A stretch of DNA of 32,000 nt from an uncultured delta proteobacterium (GTDB taxonomy: Bacteria > Desulfobacterota > BSN033 > UBA1163), in NCBI GenBank assembly GCA_963708295.1, contig CAVPSJ010000008.1, forward strand, positions 90,661 through 122,660, in the 5' to 3' direction. The notes under the pieces were generated by a model. That model ran no database searches. It was given only the letters and a program-made list of their open reading frames with translations, and was not told the DNA's origin. Shown in pieces: positions 4,766 to 20,560 of the stretch (within the stretch, counting starts at the first letter, position 1; each line of letters opens with the position of its first letter). The translations under genes were made by a program, and so were the position numbers.

Positions 4766-5794
4766 ATGATGAAACGATGGATCTCTGTGATATCCGTGCT
4801 CGGTGTCGCTCACGCTGTTTGCAGCCACTGATCTGTATGCGGCCCCGTTTTACGAGGGCAAGATCGTGCGCGTCACCGTCGGCTTTTCTGCCGGGGGAGG
4901 CTTCGACCTGTGGGCGCGCGTCGTCGCTCGCCATTTGGGAAGGAACATTCCCGGGCAATCCCACGGTCATCGTGGAGAACATCACCGGAGCGGGCGGCCT
5001 CATCCAGACGAACAAGCTCTTCAAGGCGACCAAGCCGGACGGACTGACCATCGGCCACATCAACGGCGGACTTATCCTGAGCCAGATGATGGGCCAGCCG
5101 GGGTACGACTTCGACAGCCAGAAGTTCATCTACATCGGCGCCGCCAACAAGGAGAACACCGTATTCGTCTTCGGCAAGAAGAGCGGCATGACCTCGGCCG
5201 ACAAGTGGCGGACCTCGTCCGTCGCCTGTCAAGATCGGCGGCCTTGTGACCGGGAATTTTATCGACAACTGCGACCGGGTGATGAAAGACGTGCTCGGCT
5301 TTCCCACGCAGATCATCACCGGCTACAAGGGCACGGCCGACATCCTCATCGCCACGGAGAGCGGTGAATTGGCCGGTGGCGCCGCATCCTGGGACGGCGT
5401 GAAGACCAACCGGAAGAGAGCCATCGAGGCGGGCGATATGATTGTCGTCCTCCAGTGCGTGCCGAAGCCCCTCAAGGAACTCCCGAACGTTCCCAAGATG
5501 ATCGACTTTGCAAAGACCGACGAGCAGAAGAAGTTTGTCCAGATCGTGATCCATGACGCAAACGACTACTCGAGGCCCTTTGCCGTCCCTCCGGGAACGC
5601 CGAAGGATCGTGTTGAGATTCTGCGCAAGGCCTTCCAGGAGACGATGAAGGATAAGGAGTTCCTGGCTGAGATAGACAAAATGCAGTTGACCCTCGATCC
5701 GACGACCGGCGAAGAACTGACGGCCGCGGTGGCAGGCTCCTCCAAGCTGGATCAGGCCACGCTGGCCAAGCTCAAAGATATCCTCTTCAAATAG
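4766..5794 (+). pseudogene. tctC: Tripartite tricarboxylate transporter substrate-binding protein (Bug/TctC family), spread over frames by three apparent +1 shifts
   Basis: ATG 4766 follows TAAGGAGG and gives a signal-peptide-like MMKRWISVISVLG. The protein continues as VSLTLFAATDLYAAPFYEGKIVRVTVGFSAGGGFDLWARVVARHLGRNIPG. It continues next as NPTVIVENITGAGGLIQTNKL...KWRTSS, and finally as PVKIGGLVTGNFIDN...ITGYKGTADILIA...ILFK*. The shifts lie near 4800-4806, 4950-4955 (CCCGGG) and 5218-5228. Confidence 0.75.
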
Positions 5795-5845: not shown

Positions 5846-7346
5846 ATGTTAGAGACTGCGCAGTCGTTTCTTCTCGGTTTGACGCAGATCTTTACGGTGA
5901 CGACCTTCGGGCTCATGCTCTTCGGTATCGCGATCGGTTTTGCGGTCGGGATCCTGCCGGGACTGGGAGGACCGACGGCGATGGCACTGATGCTGCCCTT
6001 CGTCGTGAAGATGACCCCGGTCGAAGCCTTCGCGTTCCTGCTCGGTATGGCCTGCGTCGTCAACACGACCGGAGACATCACGTCCGTGCTGTTCGGCATT
6101 CCGGGTGAGCCGACGACTGCCGCCACCATTGTGGACGGCCATCCGATGGCGAAAAAGGGCGAGGCCGGCCGCGCCCTCGGCGCAGTCCTGATGGCCGCGC
6201 TGATCGGCTCCATCTTCGGCGCCTTTATGCTTGCGATCGCCGTTCCCATCGTGCGGCCCCTCGTGCTCTCCTTCGGATCACCCGAGTTCTTCATGCTCGC
6301 TCTTCTCGGCATCACGTTCGTGGCATCGCTGAGCGGCGCCGACGTCATCAAGGGTCTCTATCTCGGGAGGATTGGGCCTTTTTGTTGCGACGGTGGGCCT
6401 CGACCCTGTCTCCGGCATTCAGCGCTTCACCTTCGGCCAGACGTTCCTGTGGGACGGCATCGGGCTGGTGCCGATCACCATCGGTTTTTTCGCGATCCCG
6501 GAGATCATCGATCTTGCGGTGACGGGTTCGAGCATCGCCGGCGGACGGACCGGAGCGCTGGGCGGGGTCAAGGAGGGCATCCGCGACGTATTCCGTCACA
6601 TCTGGCTCGTTCTCCGCTGCGCGGCTATCGGCACGTTCTGCGCGATCATACCCGGCATGGGAGGCGCGACGACCCAGTGGCTTTCTTACGCCCACGCCGT
6701 CCAGAGCTCTCCCGACAAGGAGCGCTTCGGCAAAGGGGCCATCGAAGGGGTGCTGGGTCCGGGGGCGTCCAACAACTCGACGCTCGGTGGCAGCCTGATC
6801 ACGACCATCTCTTTCGGGATTCCGGCCAGCGTCTTCATGGCGATTCTCATCGGGGCCTTCATCATGCACGGCGTCGTCCCCGGCCCGGACATGCTCCGGC
6901 CGGAATCGCAGGGAGGACACCTCGGCCTCACTTACTCCTTCGTCTGGATCGTGGTCATCTCGAACCTCATCACCGTGGGCATGATCTTTCTCCTCCTGAA
7001 ACAGATCGTCAAGGTGACGTACATACGCGGCAGCCTGCTCATCCCCTTCATCCTGATGCTCATCTACCTCGGCGCCTTCGCCGAGAAGAATGCCTTCCCG
7101 GATCTGATTCTGGTCCTGATCTTCGGCGGACTGGGCTGGGTACTGGAAAAGCTCAAATGGCCGCGACCGCCCTTGATCCTCGGGCTGGTGCTCGGAGGAC
7201 TGGCGGAGAGCAGGCTCTTTCTTTCCGTGGGCAATTATGGCTTGAGCTGGATCTGGCGTCCCATGGTCCTTGTGCTCATCGCGGTCACCCTGTTCGGCGC
7301 CCTTTACTCCGTTCTTAAAGGAAGGAAGGAGAAGAGAAGACATCGG
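5846..7346 (+). pseudogene. tctA: Tripartite tricarboxylate transporter large permease (TctA family), one apparent +1 shift near 6356-6370, no in-frame stop before tctB
   Basis: ATG 5846 follows GGGAGG. The first part reads MLETAQSFLLGL...GILPGLGGPTAMALMLPF...SGADVIKGL. The continuation GGLGLFVATVGLDPVSGIQRFTFGQTFLWDGIGLVPITIGFFAIPEII... lies in the frame of track ORF 6372..7886. Total length is about 500 aa, as expected for TctA; the 3' end is approximate. Confidence 0.75.
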
Positions 7347-7886
7347 ATGGTGGAAGCCGTTGAGAGTGGTTCAGGGGCCAGGGTGAGGGCAAAGGGCGAC
7401 GATCAACAAGTGGTCAGCGATTTTTGCTCTTGGCCTCGTCGATCATCCTTGCCCTTGCGCTCTGGCAGAGCAGGAACTTCAACGTCCGGGCCGGACTCTT
7501 TCCCTGGGCGATCGGTTTCCCGCTCCTTGGACTTTTGCTCCTGCAATTCGTCCGAGAGCTCATGGGCAAAGCCGGTGTTCGGTCGCGGGGACGATACCGT
7601 CGAAGAGGAGGACCAGGGGGTGCCCGCTGATGTGGCGAACCGCCGGACGAGAAACATGTTCGGCTGGATTATCGTCTACTTCCTGGCTATCTGGCTCCTC
7701 GGCTTCACCATAGGGGCCACCCTGTGCTGTTTCATCCAGCTCAAATTTGCATCCAAGGAGAAGTGGCTGATCACCCTGATCCTGACTGCGGGTCTTTGGG
7801 CCTTCGTCTACCTGTTGTTTGACCGCACGCTCCACGTGCCATTCCCGGCGGGATATCTCTTTGAGGTACTGGGGATGGCGGAATAA
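7347..7886 (+). pseudogene. tctB: TctB-like small membrane subunit, apparently spread over two frames
   Basis: A candidate ATG at 7347 follows GGAGAAGAG. The N-terminal TM segments (LLLASSIILALALWQSRNF..AGLFPWAIGFPLLGLLLLQF) are in the frame of track ORF 7424..7630, entered at a T5 run (7421-7425). The C-terminal TM segments (MFGWIIVYFLAIWLLGFTIGATLCCF..WLITLILTAGLWAFVYLLF) are back in the frame of ORF 6372..7886. Boundaries are uncertain. Confidence 0.5.
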
Positions 7887-12285: not shown

Positions 12286-12313
12286 TTGACATGGGTAATC
12301 ATTTGAATATAAT
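12286..12313 (+). promoter_or_regulatory. Near-consensus sigma70 promoter of cstA
   Basis: TTGACA (12286-12291), a 16-nt spacer, then TATAAT (12308-12313). It is followed by a ~130-nt leader. Confidence 0.6.
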
Positions 12314-14134: not shown

Positions 14135-14237
14135 GTTTTAGGCCCCGGGAGTAGGAGGAGGCGACTCCCCAATTCCAAGTGAATACCCTCCCGCTGGATG
14201 CCTGCCTGCCGGTAGGGCGGGTGAGGGTGGCTTTCAA

Positions 14238-14289
14238 ATCCCCCCATCCCCCCTTTTTCTAAAGGGGGGTGAGGGGGGATTAATTTTTT
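14238..14289 (+). terminator. G6/C6 hairpin plus T-run (intrinsic-terminator-like) after cstA
   Basis: ATCCCCCCATCCCCCCTTT (14238-14256), a loop, then AAAGGGGGGTGAGGGGGGAT (14261-14280), followed by TAATTTTTT. Confidence 0.55.
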
Positions 14290-14308: not shown

Positions 14309-14581
14309 ATGGCAAAAGAGGAGAAGAAGAAAGGGGGGCTTCTGCAAGCGGTTAGAGAGTTTGTTTACGGGGTGGCGGCTCACGATTCAGCACGATTTGC
14401 TATGAAGACAAGGGCGAGCATGGAGCATCTCTTCATCCTCATCACTATGGGAGATATGCTGGGTGTTCCAATCCTGCCACCTTACTACTCCCTGCGGCTA
14501 TTACCTTATGTGGTTCCTCAGATCTCCACCTGGAAACGGAGGATGCTGAGGGAAAAAGATTTTACGGATGCGCTGGCCTAA
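14309..14581 (+). CDS. 90-aa hypothetical protein, first gene of the ArsA-like module
   Basis: ATG follows AAGGAGAG. The sequence starts MAKEEKKKGG.... The middle is a Pro/Leu-rich hydrophobic stretch, HLFILITMGDMLGVPILPPYYSLRLLPYVVPQI. The tail WKRRMLREKDFTDALA is charged. Confidence 0.6.
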   Translation: MAKEEKKKGGLLQAVREFVYGVAAHDSARFAMKTRASMEHLFILITMGDMLGVPILPPYYSLRLLPYVVPQISTWKRRMLREKDFTDALA

Positions 14582-14584
14582 GAA

Positions 14585-14716
14585 GGCAAATTCGAGATTC
14601 GAAATCCGAAGCACGAAACAAATTCAAATTTCGAAATATCGAAGACGGTTTAGATCATTTGAATTCTAGCCGACTGAGTTTGTTTCGGGTTTCGAGATTC
14701 GATATTCGGATTTTTA
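14585..14716. repeat. Imperfect palindrome of CGAAAT/TTCGAG k-mers (locus L2)
   Basis: AAATCCGAA (14602-14610) pairs with TTCGGATTT (14706-14714). CGAAACAAA (14614-14622) pairs with TTTGTTTCG (14679-14687). The centre TCATTTGAATTCTAG (14655-14669) resembles the centre of L3. Confidence 0.6.
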
Positions 14717-14732
14717 GTTTTTAAAGAAAGGG

Positions 14733-15714
14733 GTGATTGACATTCCATTAGCTGACATATTTGATAAATTTCCGGATCGACGATACATCATGTTTGGCGG
14801 AAAAGGAGGACTTGGGAAAACCACCTTTTCAGCAGCGACAGCCTATTATTTGGCCAAAAAAGGGAAAAAGGTCCTGGTCTTTTCTGTTGACCCGCAGGCC
14901 TCGCTTACCGATATCTTCAAAAAGGATATTTTCGGAAAGGGGCCCACGGAGATCATGCCCAACCTTTATGCCCAGGAGATCGATGCCGACCGCCGGGTAA
15001 AGGAATATCAACAGGAAATTCGGCGTAAGATTCTGGACATGTACGGAATGGAAAAGATTCCCGGAGGAGATTGAGAGTTACATCCAGGCTGCGGCGGCCG
15101 AACCCGCCATGGAAGAAAGCGCCATTTTTGATGAGGTGGTGGATATTGTCATCAAGGGCGGCTACGACTACTATATTTATGACCTGGTTCCGTTGGGTCA
15201 TGCCCTTTACTATCTCAGCATGGCCTCCGTCTACGATGCCTGGATCAGTAAGATTACGGGCCTCCGGGAGCAGATGCGAGAATATGATCAGGCGGCGGCG
15301 GTGATGAAGCGGGAGAAAGAGTTGGATGAAGATGCGATCTTGAACGAACTGCTGTACATTAAAGATCGTATCAACAAGTCCTCAAGCATCCTGACCGATA
15401 AGCAGAAGACAGCCTTCTTTTTTGTTTTGACGGCCGAGGAGATGATCATCAAGGACACTTTAAAAGCAGCGGAACTTTTTGCCAAATTTGATGTTCCCTT
15501 GAGCGGTTACATCATCAACCGGGTCTTGCCTGTCGGTTTGGCGAGCCAGAATATTCCAGAATATTTGAAAAACCGTCTGACCATGCAGGAACATTATCTG
15601 AAGGTGATTGATACGACCTTTGGAAAAGAGATTATGGCATCCGTTCCTGAAATGGAGCGAGATGTGACCGGTCTACCCATGATCGAAAAGATGGCGAAGG
15701 CCATGTTTGGATGA
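14733..15714 (+). CDS. ArsA/Get3 (TRC40)-family P-loop ATPase, half-size, copy 1; reading frame broken by one extra base in CCC 15060-15062
   Basis: GTG 14733. Deviant Walker A FGGKGGLGKTT. ...MYGMEKIP continues as EEIESYIQAAAAEPAMEESAIFDEVV... in the +1 frame (track ORFs 14733..15074 and 15109..15714). The switch II signature is degenerate (YDLVPLGHALYYL). The protein has no cysteine. Confidence 0.8.
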
Positions 15715-15768
15715 ATCGGCGGATCACTGAAAGTTGAACGCTTAAAACTGGATACAAGGAGCACTCAC

Positions 15769-16753
15769 GTGAATCAAATAACGACCAGCATGGAAAAATT
15801 CATGAGGGAGCACCCCCGGTTGAAGTATATCTTTTTTGGGGGGAAGGGAGGGGTCGGAAAAACCGTTATGGCGGGGGCAGCTGCGTTGTGGTCGGCCAAA
15901 CAAGGAAGAAAGACACTGCTCGCCTCGACCAACCCGGTTCATAGCCTTTCCACCCTGTTAGAAAAGGATGTCTTTGGAAAAGCGGCCGTCGTCTGCAACG
16001 AAGACAAGTGTTACGCCTTTGAAATTGACACGCGAGATACGATCGAACGCTCAAAACAAGAAATCCGTGAAAAGATCAATTGGTTTCTCAAATTTGCGGA
16101 CATCACGACGAAGGCAGAAGATTTTATCGAATCCGCCACCATGAATCCTGCCTTTGAAGAGTCGGCTATGTTTGAAAATATGGTGGATCTCATGTTCAAG
16201 GATGAATATGATTTTTACGTCTTCGATACTGCTCCTACAGCGAATGCAAGACGCTTGCTCGGGATGTCGAAGGTCTATTCCCTCTGGGTGGAGAAGATGC
16301 TGAAGAGTCGGGAGGAAGCGAAATCGCTAAGAGAGATACTTTCCTTCTCGAAAAAAGAAAAAAAAGGATCCCCTCCTGGACTACCTCCTAAGTTTCAAGG
16401 ATCGAATGTCCCATGCGAAAGACCTCCTGACCGATGAGGCCCTCACCGCTTTCTTTTTTGTCACCCTCCCCGAAAGCCTCCCGATCGCTGTCATCACCCG
16501 CTTCATCAACTGGTTCCACGAATTTGGCATTCCCGTCGGCGGTGTGGTCGTCAATGGAGTCATCCAGAAGGATCAAGTGGGAAAAGATGCTGCCGAGTTC
16601 GTCCGCAACCGAGTCCAGATGCAAGATGAACATATGGGAGAGATCTGGAAGATATTCGGAGACAGGGTGAGGGCAATCGTTCCCCTTTTTGAAACGGAGG
16701 TGAAGGGGGCGAAGATGCTAAATCGAACGGTTGAACATCTTTTTACGCCCTGA
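15769..16753 (+). CDS. ArsA/Get3 (TRC40)-family P-loop ATPase, half-size, copy 2; reading frame broken in the A8 run 16358-16365
   Basis: GTG 15769 lies 7 nt after AAGGAG. Walker A FGGKGGVGKTV. Signature FDTAPTANARRLL. ...LSFSKKEKK continues as DPLLDYLLSFKDRMSHAKDLLTDEALTAFFFVTLPE... in the +1 frame (track ORFs 15769..16437 and 16406..16753). Confidence 0.8.
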
Positions 16754-17004
16754 TCCCATCAGGATTTCGACCAAAAATAATTCCTCTTCCGCTCACACAT
16801 TGCTGCCTTTCCTCATCAAAACCTCGGACTTTTTTGTTCACATGCTGAACTATTTTCATATCTAAACGAATCTTCTAGCTCCGAGGTAACTGACTAATCC
16901 TTTGAAATCATAAGTAGTTTTCGATTCTTAGCCTATTTATGAAAATTGGCATAAGAATTGCTGAGTTATAAGATAGTGTTATTACTTTGCTTTTAGGAGG
17001 AATA

Positions 17005-17763
17005 ATGTTAGGTCTGCTCCAGTTATTGCTCGCCGTCATTGCGATCTACGGCGCCCTCAAATTCTCTGAAGATCTGAAACTTGTCGTTCCTCTGGGATGT
17101 CTGATCGCCATGTTTGTCGTGAGCAGAATTGAAAAAGGAAATTCCGAAAAGAAGATCTCAAGGAAGAATTTCTTGCAATCAGAAATGGACAAGGTCTCGA
17201 AGAAGGAGTCTATGGCAATTAAAGATCAGGATTATTCGACCGTTGAGTCACTTCTGTGGCCCAAAAGTGAACTGCTCTTAATCGATACCGTTCATTCCAT
17301 CTTCAAGGACTTGGGGTTCAGGATTTCTACCGGGATTAACTACCAATCCGTGGATCGCATCATGAAGATCCCGGAAACCCGGATGGTCTTTGGAGTACAG
17401 GTTCTGATCAGTGAAGGAGAAGTAGAGGGAAACCATCCCAAAATCAATCGGGCCTTACAGTTTGATAAAGAGAAGAGGGAGAATGAGAAATCCCTGATTA
17501 TTGCGGCCACTCATATTCGTCTCCCCCTTTCTGAAATGGGCCAAGTGCCCCATCTCTCCAAAGAGCTGAGCCATTTCTTAAGTCGGCACAATATGAGTTT
17601 GATTACCACCCGCCACCTTTACGAACTTTGGCAGAAGGCCAGGGGGGGGGAGATTGATATTCTTGGTTTTTTTGAGCACGTCTATTCTCACTCCAATGGG
17701 GCCGCACTATTAAACGGGGCTGTAAATTCTCACTCACCCATGTCGAACCTGCCCGTCCAGTAG
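17005..17763 (+). CDS. Hypothetical membrane-anchored protein (two N-terminal TM helices, ~200-aa soluble C-terminal domain)
   Basis: ATG 17005 follows TAGGAGGAATA. It starts MLGLLQLLLAVIAIYGAL...VVPLGCLIAMFVVS, then has a charged linker and a C-terminal domain. It is preceded by 250 nt of A+T-rich non-coding DNA. No family recognised. Confidence 0.55.
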   Translation: MLGLLQLLLAVIAIYGALKFSEDLKLVVPLGCLIAMFVVSRIEKGNSEKKISRKNFLQSEMDKVSKKESMAIKDQDYSTVESLLWPKSELLLIDTVHSIFKDLGFRISTGINYQSVDRIMKIPETRMVFGVQVLISEGEVEGNHPKINRALQFDKEKRENEKSLIIAATHIRLPLSEMGQVPHLSKELSHFLSRHNMSLITTRHLYELWQKARGGEIDILGFFEHVYSHSNGAALLNGAVNSHSPMSNLPVQ

Positions 17764-19799: not shown

Positions 19800-20560
19800 G
19801 GCCCGGATGGCGGATACTTACCCTCCTCACCCATTGTTGCCAGTAATTCTGCCCAACCAGAGGGTTTTGATTTCACCTACAAAGCGTCGAAGTTAGTCTT
19901 TATCGAGATTGTTGATTTCTGATTGAAAGACAGTATGAGGAGCCGTTTCTGCCTTTTGGTTTCTGATATATTCTTGAACGACTTCAGCTGTAATTCCATC
20001 TGCGACACTAGCAATGTAATAGCCCGCTGCCCAAAACGTTCCCTCTTTCCAGATGTGTTGTTGAATAACGTCGAGGAATTCTTCCCTGATCTTTCTTGAG
20101 GATATACTTTTTAAAATCTGAACAATCCTCATAGGTGTGTCTGTAGGTCGTGCCTCAATCAACATATGAACGTGGTCAGGCATCACTTCATGAGCGATGA
20201 TCTTGAACCCGTACTCATAGGCAATGTCGGCTAAGATGCGTTTTAACCGGACCGCCAAATTACCAATTAGAAAGCTTCGACGGTATTTTGTTATCCAGAC
20301 AAGATGATATTTCAAGTTGTATCTTGAGTGCGAGCCTGACCTCGTATTGTCTTGATAGAAATAATCCAAGACTGCTTTTAATGTCTCTTGTCGTTTTGTT
20401 TCTTCATACATGTTCTTTTGCCTTTCAGGGGAGCTTTCGGAAGGGGTGTTTCAAATACTGATTATAGAAAGTAATCTAGAGCTTTCATAGCCAGCTGTCA
20501 ATCAACGACTTCAGAAAGAAACATTGCATCTCTTCCCCTCGTTTGCCCAAGAAATGGGCA
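19800..20560 (-). mobile_element. IS200-like insertion sequence (ends not determinable by eye)
   Basis: tnpA plus flanking non-coding DNA. There is a subterminal hairpin candidate, TGCCCA-agaaa-TGGGCA, at 20544-20560. The boundaries are guesses. Confidence 0.3.
19893..20411 (-). CDS. tnpA: IS200/IS605-family Y1 (HUH) transposase TnpA
   Basis: YNLKYHLVWITKYRR, HUH motif PDHVHMLI, and catalytic-Tyr context FWAAGYYIASV. No tnpB is adjacent. Confidence 0.85.
   Translation of the reverse strand: MYEETKRQETLKAVLDYFYQDNTRSGSHSRYNLKYHLVWITKYRRSFLIGNLAVRLKRILADIAYEYGFKIIAHEVMPDHVHMLIEARPTDTPMRIVQILKSISSRKIREEFLDVIQQHIWKEGTFWAAGYYIASVADGITAEVVQEYIRNQKAETAPHTVFQSEINNLDKD

Follow-up and report, generated by a model that had tools for sequence, protein, structure and literature searches.

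The 32 000 nucleotides (nt) analysed here (the window: contig CAVPSJ010000008.1, positions 90 661 to 122 660 of the forward strand, assembly GCA_963708295.1) come from an uncultured delta proteobacterium (GTDB lineage Bacteria; Desulfobacterota; BSN033; UBA1163) and harbour a four-gene operon on the + strand, cstA–cstX–arsA1–arsA2. It encodes a CstA-family permease (12419/12449–14134), a 90 amino acid (aa) protein assigned through its homologues to the DUF7990 family (PF25952), referred to as CstX (14309–14581), and two ATPases of the Get3/ArsA type, i.e. A1 with the more complete site (arsA1, 14733–15714) and A2 with a degenerate site (arsA2, 15769–16753). This operon type has already been described as cstA–cstX–arsA (PMC2963123), and the window copy belongs to a known but experimentally uncharacterised type. 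The gene content is seen directly in the sequence, and from it we infer, with about an even chance of being right, that A1 and A2 form a heterodimer coupled through CstX to transport by, or gating of, CstA; the frameshifts interrupting both ATPase genes are most likely artefacts. A first-pass annotation of the window had taken the small protein and the two ATPases for a three-gene unit; since cstA precedes them in 90 of the 97 related loci, the permease gene belongs to it as well, making four genes.

These numbers come from a tblastn census of the 97 loci, in which identities are relative to the window proteins. In the 90 loci, cstA is followed on the same strand by the DUF7990 gene, the first ATPase gene and the second, while six loci have an upstream flank of less than 310 nt, too short to show an upstream gene, and a single locus (L092) carries a different 249 aa open reading frame (ORF) within the 0.9 kb between the contig end and cstX. 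In every locus with enough contig, arsA2 directly follows arsA1, and the same four-gene order was also found, besides this census, in every relative contig looked up. The small protein is a constant partner of the ATPase pair, which supports its naming as a candidate partner in the first pass. Identities to the window range from 82 to 98 % for CstX, from 63 to 99 % for A1, from 65 to 96 % for A2 and from 55 to 96 % for CstA, CstX and A1 tending toward higher conservation than CstA. The core is also present in more divergent operons (L098, L100 and L104), and cstA lies upstream in L098, L102 and L104 too. Since the genes flanking the operon vary between lineages, the conserved core consists of the four genes only, all of which are under purifying selection.

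Against this background, it is highly improbable that the small ORF and the two ATPases form a stand-alone ArsA/Get3 machine unrelated to the neighbouring transporter. Such a module would agree with the strong hairpin between cstA and the small ORF and with the different ORF upstream of cstX in L092, but the hairpin is not conserved in relatives, cstA is immediately upstream in almost all loci of the census and in the three divergent ones just named, the high-G+C contig L104 has a DUF7990 gene on either side of cstA, followed by an A1-like ATPase gene, and in one database protein (P0158) the C-terminus of CstA is fused to DUF7990.

The operon is widespread. Scanning one genome per species with patterns from a 14-sequence CstX alignment, a seed that recovers close relatives only, yielded matches in at least 597 species-level genomes, with 80 loci returned; a 66-sequence DUF7990 alignment was too diverse to serve as a seed. 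The hosts belong mainly to the Thermodesulfobacteriota, i.e. the Syntrophaceae, Syntrophorhabdaceae, Desulfomonilaceae, Syntrophobacteraceae, Desulfarculaceae and Desulfobacca, and a few are assigned to the Nitrospirota, Spirochaetes, Leptospirales, Phycisphaerae and Ca. Hakubella. No arsenic resistance gene (arsR, arsB, acr3, arsC or arsD) was present among the 30 window ORFs scanned against Pfam, nor were ars genes listed in the gene tables of the related loci looked up; together with the absence of a metalloid-binding triad and of a CxxC motif from the two ATPases, this agrees with the first-pass view that the system is not related to arsenic.

Once the reading frames are repaired, A1 and A2 are 326 and 327 aa long, encoded by separate genes with a 54 nt spacer. 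Each has one ArsA_ATPase domain (PF02374) that covers the whole model (E 1.8e-69 and 4e-63, respectively), and both match TIGR00345 (GET3_arsA_TRC40) above its cut-off, in line with the family assignment made from the letters alone. The P-loops follow the deviant Walker A motif, reading GGKGGLGKT in A1 and GGKGGVGKT in A2. In contrast, the switch regions of the two proteins differ: switch I is SVDPQAS in A1 and STNPVHS in A2, where Asn replaces the catalytic Asp, while switch II is YDLVPLGHALYYL in A1 (DLVPLGH, which keeps D..P.GH) and FDTAPTANARRLL in A2 (DTAPTAN, in which GH is lost). In Get3/ArsA proteins, the water that attacks the nucleotide is activated by the Asp of switch I (Asp57 of yeast Get3), and the D-T-A-P-T-G-H-T segment passes the nucleotide state to the helical subdomain. 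The motifs of A1 are invariant in 77/77 and those of A2 in 76/76 distinct orthologues, and the same asymmetry recurs identically in divergent operons whose ATPases are about 70 % identical. Therefore, the deviations are fixed features and not signs of decay.

The first-pass annotation had described this pattern as a reciprocal degeneracy of the two signature motifs. The motif differences are real, but a more complete site in A1 and a degenerate one in A2, with both the Asn and the loss of GH, describe them better. In our reading, A1 probably provides the hydrolytically competent site and A2 a degenerate ATP-binding site, because the former keeps the Asp and D..P.GH and the latter has neither the Asp nor GH; we prefer this to two reciprocally half-damaged sites. 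A1 and A2 share only 33–36 % identity with each other, whereas each is 68–76 % identical to its counterpart in L098 and L100; the duplication is therefore older than the split between these operons, and A1 and A2 are ancient paralogues related to archaeal Get3. Their adjacency, low mutual identity and fixed unequal motifs fit the obligate asymmetric heterodimer proposed in the first pass.

As noted there as well, A1 contains no cysteine. Since A2 has only C76 and C81, a metalloid-binding cysteine triad of the ArsA type is impossible. The A2 pair (CNEDKC, residues 76/81, window positions around 15994–16011) is kept in 67–69 of 77 close orthologues and is absent in L098 and L100. Opposite the archaeal CxxC (CDFC/CEFC), A1 has QNIPEYL and A2 has KDAAEFV, i.e. 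there is no zinc clasp.

In the assembly as given, both ATPase genes are frameshifted: arsA1 is split between 14733–15074 and 15109–15714, and arsA2 between 15769–16437 and 16406–16753. Taken at face value, this would point towards a decaying pseudogene pair and a module that is dead in this organism, and an IS200-type (Y1) transposase gene lies nearby (19893–20411, − strand, E 7e-38). We consider this improbable. Three-frame translation places the shifts at CCCGG (15060–15064) and at the run GAAAAAAGAAAAAAAAGG (A8GG, 16358–16367), and removing one base per site restores continuous reading frames without any other stop. Both shifts are 1 nt insertions in homopolymer contexts relative to every relative aligned (five in total), the closest of which has AGTAGAGAA at the position of the A8 run, and the ATPase genes are intact in all relatives examined, including the syntenic ones with 86–89 % nucleotide identity. 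The catalytic motifs are all intact, and synonymous and nonsynonymous codon differences from the closest syntenic relative (L013, 86–89 % nucleotide identity) stand in a proportion similar to that in cstA, with 84 synonymous and 13 nonsynonymous differences in A1, 76 and 14 in A2, 131 and 25 in cstA, and 27 and 5 in cstX. Moreover, the unrelated tctA gene (fused to tctB; 5846–7886) shows the same kind of defect, with Pfam TctA model positions 3–157 and 156–423 falling in overlapping ORFs that join at around 6365–6375 in a G run, which points to homopolymer errors across the assembly. Because the insertions are homopolymer changes confined to the window, tctA is shifted alike, the relatives are intact and the codon differences are mostly synonymous, the two frameshifts are most likely sequencing or assembly errors, though a very recent inactivation of arsA1 and arsA2 is conceivable. 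Programmed frameshifting at the A8 run was rejected, as no relative has either the run or the shift.

The third protein, CstX, is preceded by a ribosome-binding site (AAGGAGAG) 9 nt before its start. Its homologues fall into 5629 protein clusters, and among the best 120, with 82–98 % identity, all 120 have a precomputed PF25952 assignment, which is the basis for that of the window protein; the local Pfam scan gave no match even at E 10, the DUF7990 model being absent from that Pfam copy. DUF7990 comprises about 390 clusters at 50 % identity. The NCBIfam model NF041419 (‘cory-CC-star protein’) aligns to the conserved core of CstX at residues 32–83 (E 2.6e-9), but with 37 bits against a cut-off of 80 CstX is not a member, nor does it end in Cys-Cys. 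Neither a Foldseek search of the CstX model against the PDB nor a tblastn search against plasmids returned a match.

An AlphaFold2 model based on a 66-sequence alignment predicts helices at residues 9–47 and 58–89, joined by a loop at 48–57 (GDMLGVPILP), with a mean predicted local distance difference test (pLDDT) score of 79. CstX would thus fold into a helical hairpin whose tip is hydrophobic, whose N-terminal helix is amphipathic and whose C-terminal WKRRxLRE helix is basic. Invariant or near-invariant in the 66 sequences are G21, G48, G52, P54, Y60, R63, L64, L65, P66, W75 and R81. The Kyte–Doolittle profile has a single hydrophobic peak, with a 19-residue maximum of 1.49 at residues 41–59 that is marginal for a membrane helix, and the tip holds an invariant Gly-Asp, several Pro and a near-invariant Arg. 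Such a shape would suit a re-entrant or interface-buried adaptor with both ends in the cytoplasm.

The permease itself has a strong match to PF02554 (E 2.4e-138). Its ORF spans 571 aa from GTG 12419 and 561 aa from ATG 12449, the latter, as in the orthologues, being the likely start, and ends 175 nt before cstX on the same strand. Its relationship to CstA of E. coli, a pyruvate/H+ symporter, is distant (NF011590, E 2e-56, well under the cut-off).

In the mechanism that we favour, A1 and A2 would associate obligately as a heterodimer in which one site hydrolyses ATP and the other binds it and hydrolyses it slowly or not at all. CstX would bring its hydrophobic tip (residues ~41–72) to the membrane or into contact with CstA; the N-terminal helix and the basic WKRRxLRE helix of CstX would point into the cytoplasm and hold the ATPase dimer, and ATP binding and hydrolysis by the dimer would be coupled to transport or gating of the permease, with pyruvate, peptides or a related carbon source as possible substrates. 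A precedent for such coupling is ArsA, which turns the ArsB carrier into an ATP-driven pump. Support comes from the CstA–DUF7990 fusion and from the same proposal having been made independently by Castillo and Saier (PMC2963123).

Several points weigh against this mechanism. We infer every one of the contacts it calls for, i.e. those between A1 and A2, between CstX and the ATPases and between CstX and CstA, and the tip of CstX may lie within a groove of a protein instead of in lipid. The closest solved relatives, the archaeal Get3 proteins, have tail-anchored proteins as clients and energise no transporter; ArsA needs no adaptor to dock on ArsB, which makes the analogy imperfect; and the CstA-family carriers of E. 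coli are proton symporters that work without an ATPase. In addition, CstX and DUF7990 were equated by description and not by sequence comparison, and our literature search found no experiment on any member of the cstA–cstX–arsA operon type.

In another reading, the heterodimer would be an energy sensor that binds ATP mainly at A2 and opens or closes CstA through CstX in response to ATP/ADP, without powering transport. CstA homologues elsewhere are self-sufficient symporters. The fixed, non-catalytic-looking A2 site beside an intact P-loop is typical of regulatory nucleotide sites, and the CstA family has been tied to carbon starvation (PMC2963123). As A1 retains the residues expected for hydrolysis, we regard a pure sensor as rather unlikely, although the sequence data do not separate a regulatory role from the driving role favoured above.

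The proposal of Castillo and Saier (Int J Microbiol 2010:187373; PMC2963123) was based on 26 cstA–cstX–arsA operons, none of which contained ars genes or arsR. In their analysis, single-domain ArsA homologues of around 330 aa, falling into clusters 14–18, were encoded together with cstA and cstX; CstX, of about 90 aa and with one predicted transmembrane segment, occurred only where CstA was present, was duplicated in some cases and changed at a slower rate than ArsA, and a further gene, cstY, was sometimes present in archaea. Adjacent ATPase pairs were reported in Pyrobaculum arsenaticum and Symbiobacterium thermophilum, each bacterial protein clustering with an archaeal one, and the CstA, CstX and ArsA trees were read as co-evolution. 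ArsA was proposed to energise CstA with CstX as the linker, the ATPases being suggested to act as homodimers, and in the ArsA family overall the D of the SXD motif was replaced only by N (PMC2963123). The window operon resembles this set in its permease, its ~90 aa protein with one hydrophobic segment, its single-domain ATPases of around 330 aa, the lack of ars genes, the adjacent ATPase pair, the occasional second CstX paralogue in relatives and the slower evolution of CstX compared with ArsA. It differs in that the Thermodesulfobacteriota lineage is new, in that the window has no cstY and in that the fixed asymmetry of the ATPases was not described there. In the literature searched, ‘CstX’ was used in the transporter sense only in PMC2963123, and nothing was found for ‘DUF7990’ or ‘cory-CC-star’.

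The structures closest to A1 and A2 are those of archaeal Get3, i.e. 3UG6 of M. jannaschii and 3ZQ6 of M. thermautotrophicus, which match end to end (E 1e-54 to 8e-52) and are followed by E. coli ArsA. The likeness to archaeal Get3 (3UG6/3UG7, 3ZQ6) is full-length and extends over the deviant Walker A and the helical subdomain including the region of the TRC40 insert, which the alignment to M. jannaschii Get3 crosses with a deletion of four to seven residues. Archaeal Get3 proteins, however, are homo-oligomers with DTAPTGHT, the switch-I Asp and CxxC, while the window encodes two unequal paralogues, without CxxC, together with a permease. Bodensohn et al. found that CxxC is not universal in the Get3/ArsA family and placed single-domain bacterial homologues with the TRC40 insert and without CxxC near archaeal Get3, considering it likely that these bind hydrophobic sequences (PMC6593721). 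A1 and A2 probably belong to this group.

This relationship brings in a reading in which the pair serves membrane targeting, with a composite hydrophobic groove of the A1/A2 heterodimer capturing the C-proximal hydrophobic part of CstX, or parts of CstA, for delivery to the membrane; CstX would then be the client, and ATP would pay for biogenesis instead of transport. The closeness to the Get3 structures, the alignment through the insert region and the hydrophobic-sequence binding considered likely for CxxC-less homologues all point this way, as does the sole hydrophobic stretch of CstX, which at residues 41–72 of 90 and with a short tail after it loosely resembles a tail anchor and for which a single transmembrane segment was predicted (PMC2963123). 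However, a two-subunit ATPase of 650 aa for one 90 aa client would be unusual, the stretch is of marginal hydrophobicity, includes GD, PP and a conserved Arg and makes a hairpin turn in the model, and the basic WKRR tail suggests a cytoplasmic C-terminus. Furthermore, the bacterial homologues do not correlate with the number of tail-anchored proteins (Bodensohn et al., PMC6593721), and targeting alone leaves the strict linkage to cstA unexplained. Such targeting is therefore possible but unlikely in our view. We see a somewhat smaller chance for a hard-wired variant of a Get-like system, in which an asymmetric Get3 heterodimer would take the CstX hairpin into its groove and hand it to CstA, or CstX would be a wedge-type receptor helix resembling Get1. 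If this variant were true, it would be the first bacterial Get3 homologue identified with a co-encoded client or receptor, and pump energisation of the ArsA type and membrane targeting of the Get3 type would be linked in their origins.

The E. coli ArsA–ArsB arsenite pump (ArsA structure 1F48) likewise pairs a secondary carrier with an ATPase from this family whose two halves are not equivalent. A1 and A2 match E. coli ArsA with E 5e-30 and 5e-27, though the likeness is poor beyond switch II. Furthermore, the window halves are unfused (TIGR04291, 94 and 99 bits, cut-off 650), whereas ArsA is a fused protein of about 580 aa, and the window ATPases lack the metalloid cysteine triad and an ars operon and go with an unrelated carrier (CstA) and an extra small subunit.

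A pair of separately encoded Get3/ArsA-like ATPases is also known from Mycobacterium tuberculosis, i.e. BagA/BagB (Rv3679/Rv3680), both in one PDB entry, 6BS3. Orthology with these was rejected based on the low scores for the BagA model (49.7/43.4 bits, cut-off 400), the BagB model (40.3/41.8 bits, cut-off 521) and 6BS3 (E 8e-9 and 1e-6), and we know of no link of BagA/BagB to CstA or DUF7990.

In many of the related operons, a second, divergent DUF7990 paralogue with 40–62 % identity is located in the cstA–cstX interval or else downstream, on the other strand, for instance in L004 (10538–10840, − strand), L040 (6870–7127), L056 (8267–8530), L098 (4971–5342) and L100 (1613–1936), among others. 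Its C-terminus reads EHDYHLHGL or LTDLCDxEIT. The window carries one DUF7990 gene only, without such a paralogue. The proteins P0156 and P0170, considered as distant DUF7990 subfamilies, proved to be second paralogues of this kind, encoded beside a window-type CstX in operons with cstA and an A1/A2 pair. It is tempting to speculate that the two types of CstX might correspond to the two subunits of the ATPase. Small proteins, YbdD and YjiX, are also encoded immediately after the CstA-family genes cstA and btsT of E. coli.

DUF7990 occurs in further arrangements, such as a tandem protein (P0121) and proteins with an extra N-terminal domain (P0128, P0169 and P0204). This domain of about 125 aa (RIQIWDPRS..GL..SLRH.VRRYPTF) is encoded just 5′ of the DUF7990 gene in L100 (1239–1616) and fused to DUF7990 in the three proteins; it had no Pfam family in the contig gene tables and no NCBIfam match. 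For the distant members P0246 and P0237, the contigs were too short to give gene context.

Turning to the spacers, the G6/C6 hairpin between cstA and cstX (14237–14281, + strand, −39 kcal/mol, z −2.5), followed by AUUAAUUUUUU, is real, but since cstA precedes cstX in the same operon it is an internal intergenic feature and not the module boundary for which it had been taken. Its sequence is not kept in the closest relatives, and the equivalent spacer of L013 folds no better than shuffled sequences. The A+T-rich gap after 16753, described in the first pass as the other bracket of the module, has an unremarkable fold (z −1.5).

The spacer between cstX and arsA1 holds a long imperfect inverted repeat with 39 nt arms (14588–14713, + strand, −46.9 kcal/mol, z −4.7). 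The corresponding spacers of L013 (10400–10520), L015 (10349–10470) and L024 (2601–2706) also fold well (z −4.0, −4.4 and −2.4, respectively) with differing sequences, and in L008 the spacer is only about 20 nt long and the long hairpin absent. Possibly this hairpin acts in the processing or stability of the mRNA and so gives CstX and the ATPases different levels; like the upstream cstA and the Asp-to-Asn exchange in switch I of A2, it had gone unnoticed in the first pass. Neither the hairpin between cstA and cstX nor this repeat is a copy of a dispersed element, as the window contains no further copies. At the same position, a Syntrophobacterales subgroup (L091–L093 and L095) carries a toxin–antitoxin-like gene pair (L091 8396–9363; L092 1300–1868), and the operon therefore tolerates insertions there.

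Upstream of the operon, a putative sigma-70-type promoter, TTGACA-16 nt-TATAAT (12286–12313, + strand), lies around 135 nt before the probable cstA start codon, an assignment by consensus match only (12/12 positions). Downstream, the gene for a 258 aa protein with a hydrophobic N-terminus (16987–17763, + strand), which matched no Pfam or NCBIfam family, is found 3′ of arsA2 in 15 of the 97 loci with 55–84 % identity. Being a lineage-specific neighbour outside the universal core, it could encode an accessory subunit of this lineage in a position comparable to that of the archaeal CstY of Castillo and Saier. At the position of the IS200-type transposase gene, the relative L012/L013 carries a gene for a 114 aa protein without a family, and L015 has no gene. 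Further upstream in the window, overlapping ORFs at 4777–5794 hold a weakly matching fragment of TctC (E 8e-4) and may be another frameshifted gene, and 3524–4497 matches class II aldolases from model position 67 onwards, after an unassigned 151 aa ORF, and may be frameshifted as well. Rfam and tRNA scans of the window gave no matches.

Beyond what was known of this operon type, our analysis adds a large Thermodesulfobacteriota clade that carries it, the invariant asymmetry of the ATPase motifs including the Asp-to-Asn exchange in A2, a hairpin model for CstX together with its high sequence conservation, and frameshifts that are likely artefactual. The operon is widespread and strongly conserved, with CstX retaining 82–98 % identity across several phyla, yet its small protein is still listed as a domain of unknown function. 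The fixed arrangement of a probably competent and a probably degenerate site offers clear mutants. If the ATPase pair does drive or gate CstA, it would be the first case of an ArsA/Get3-type ATPase demonstrated to serve a transporter for something other than arsenic, and the finding would bear on how syntrophic and sulfate-reducing bacteria acquire carbon under energy limitation.

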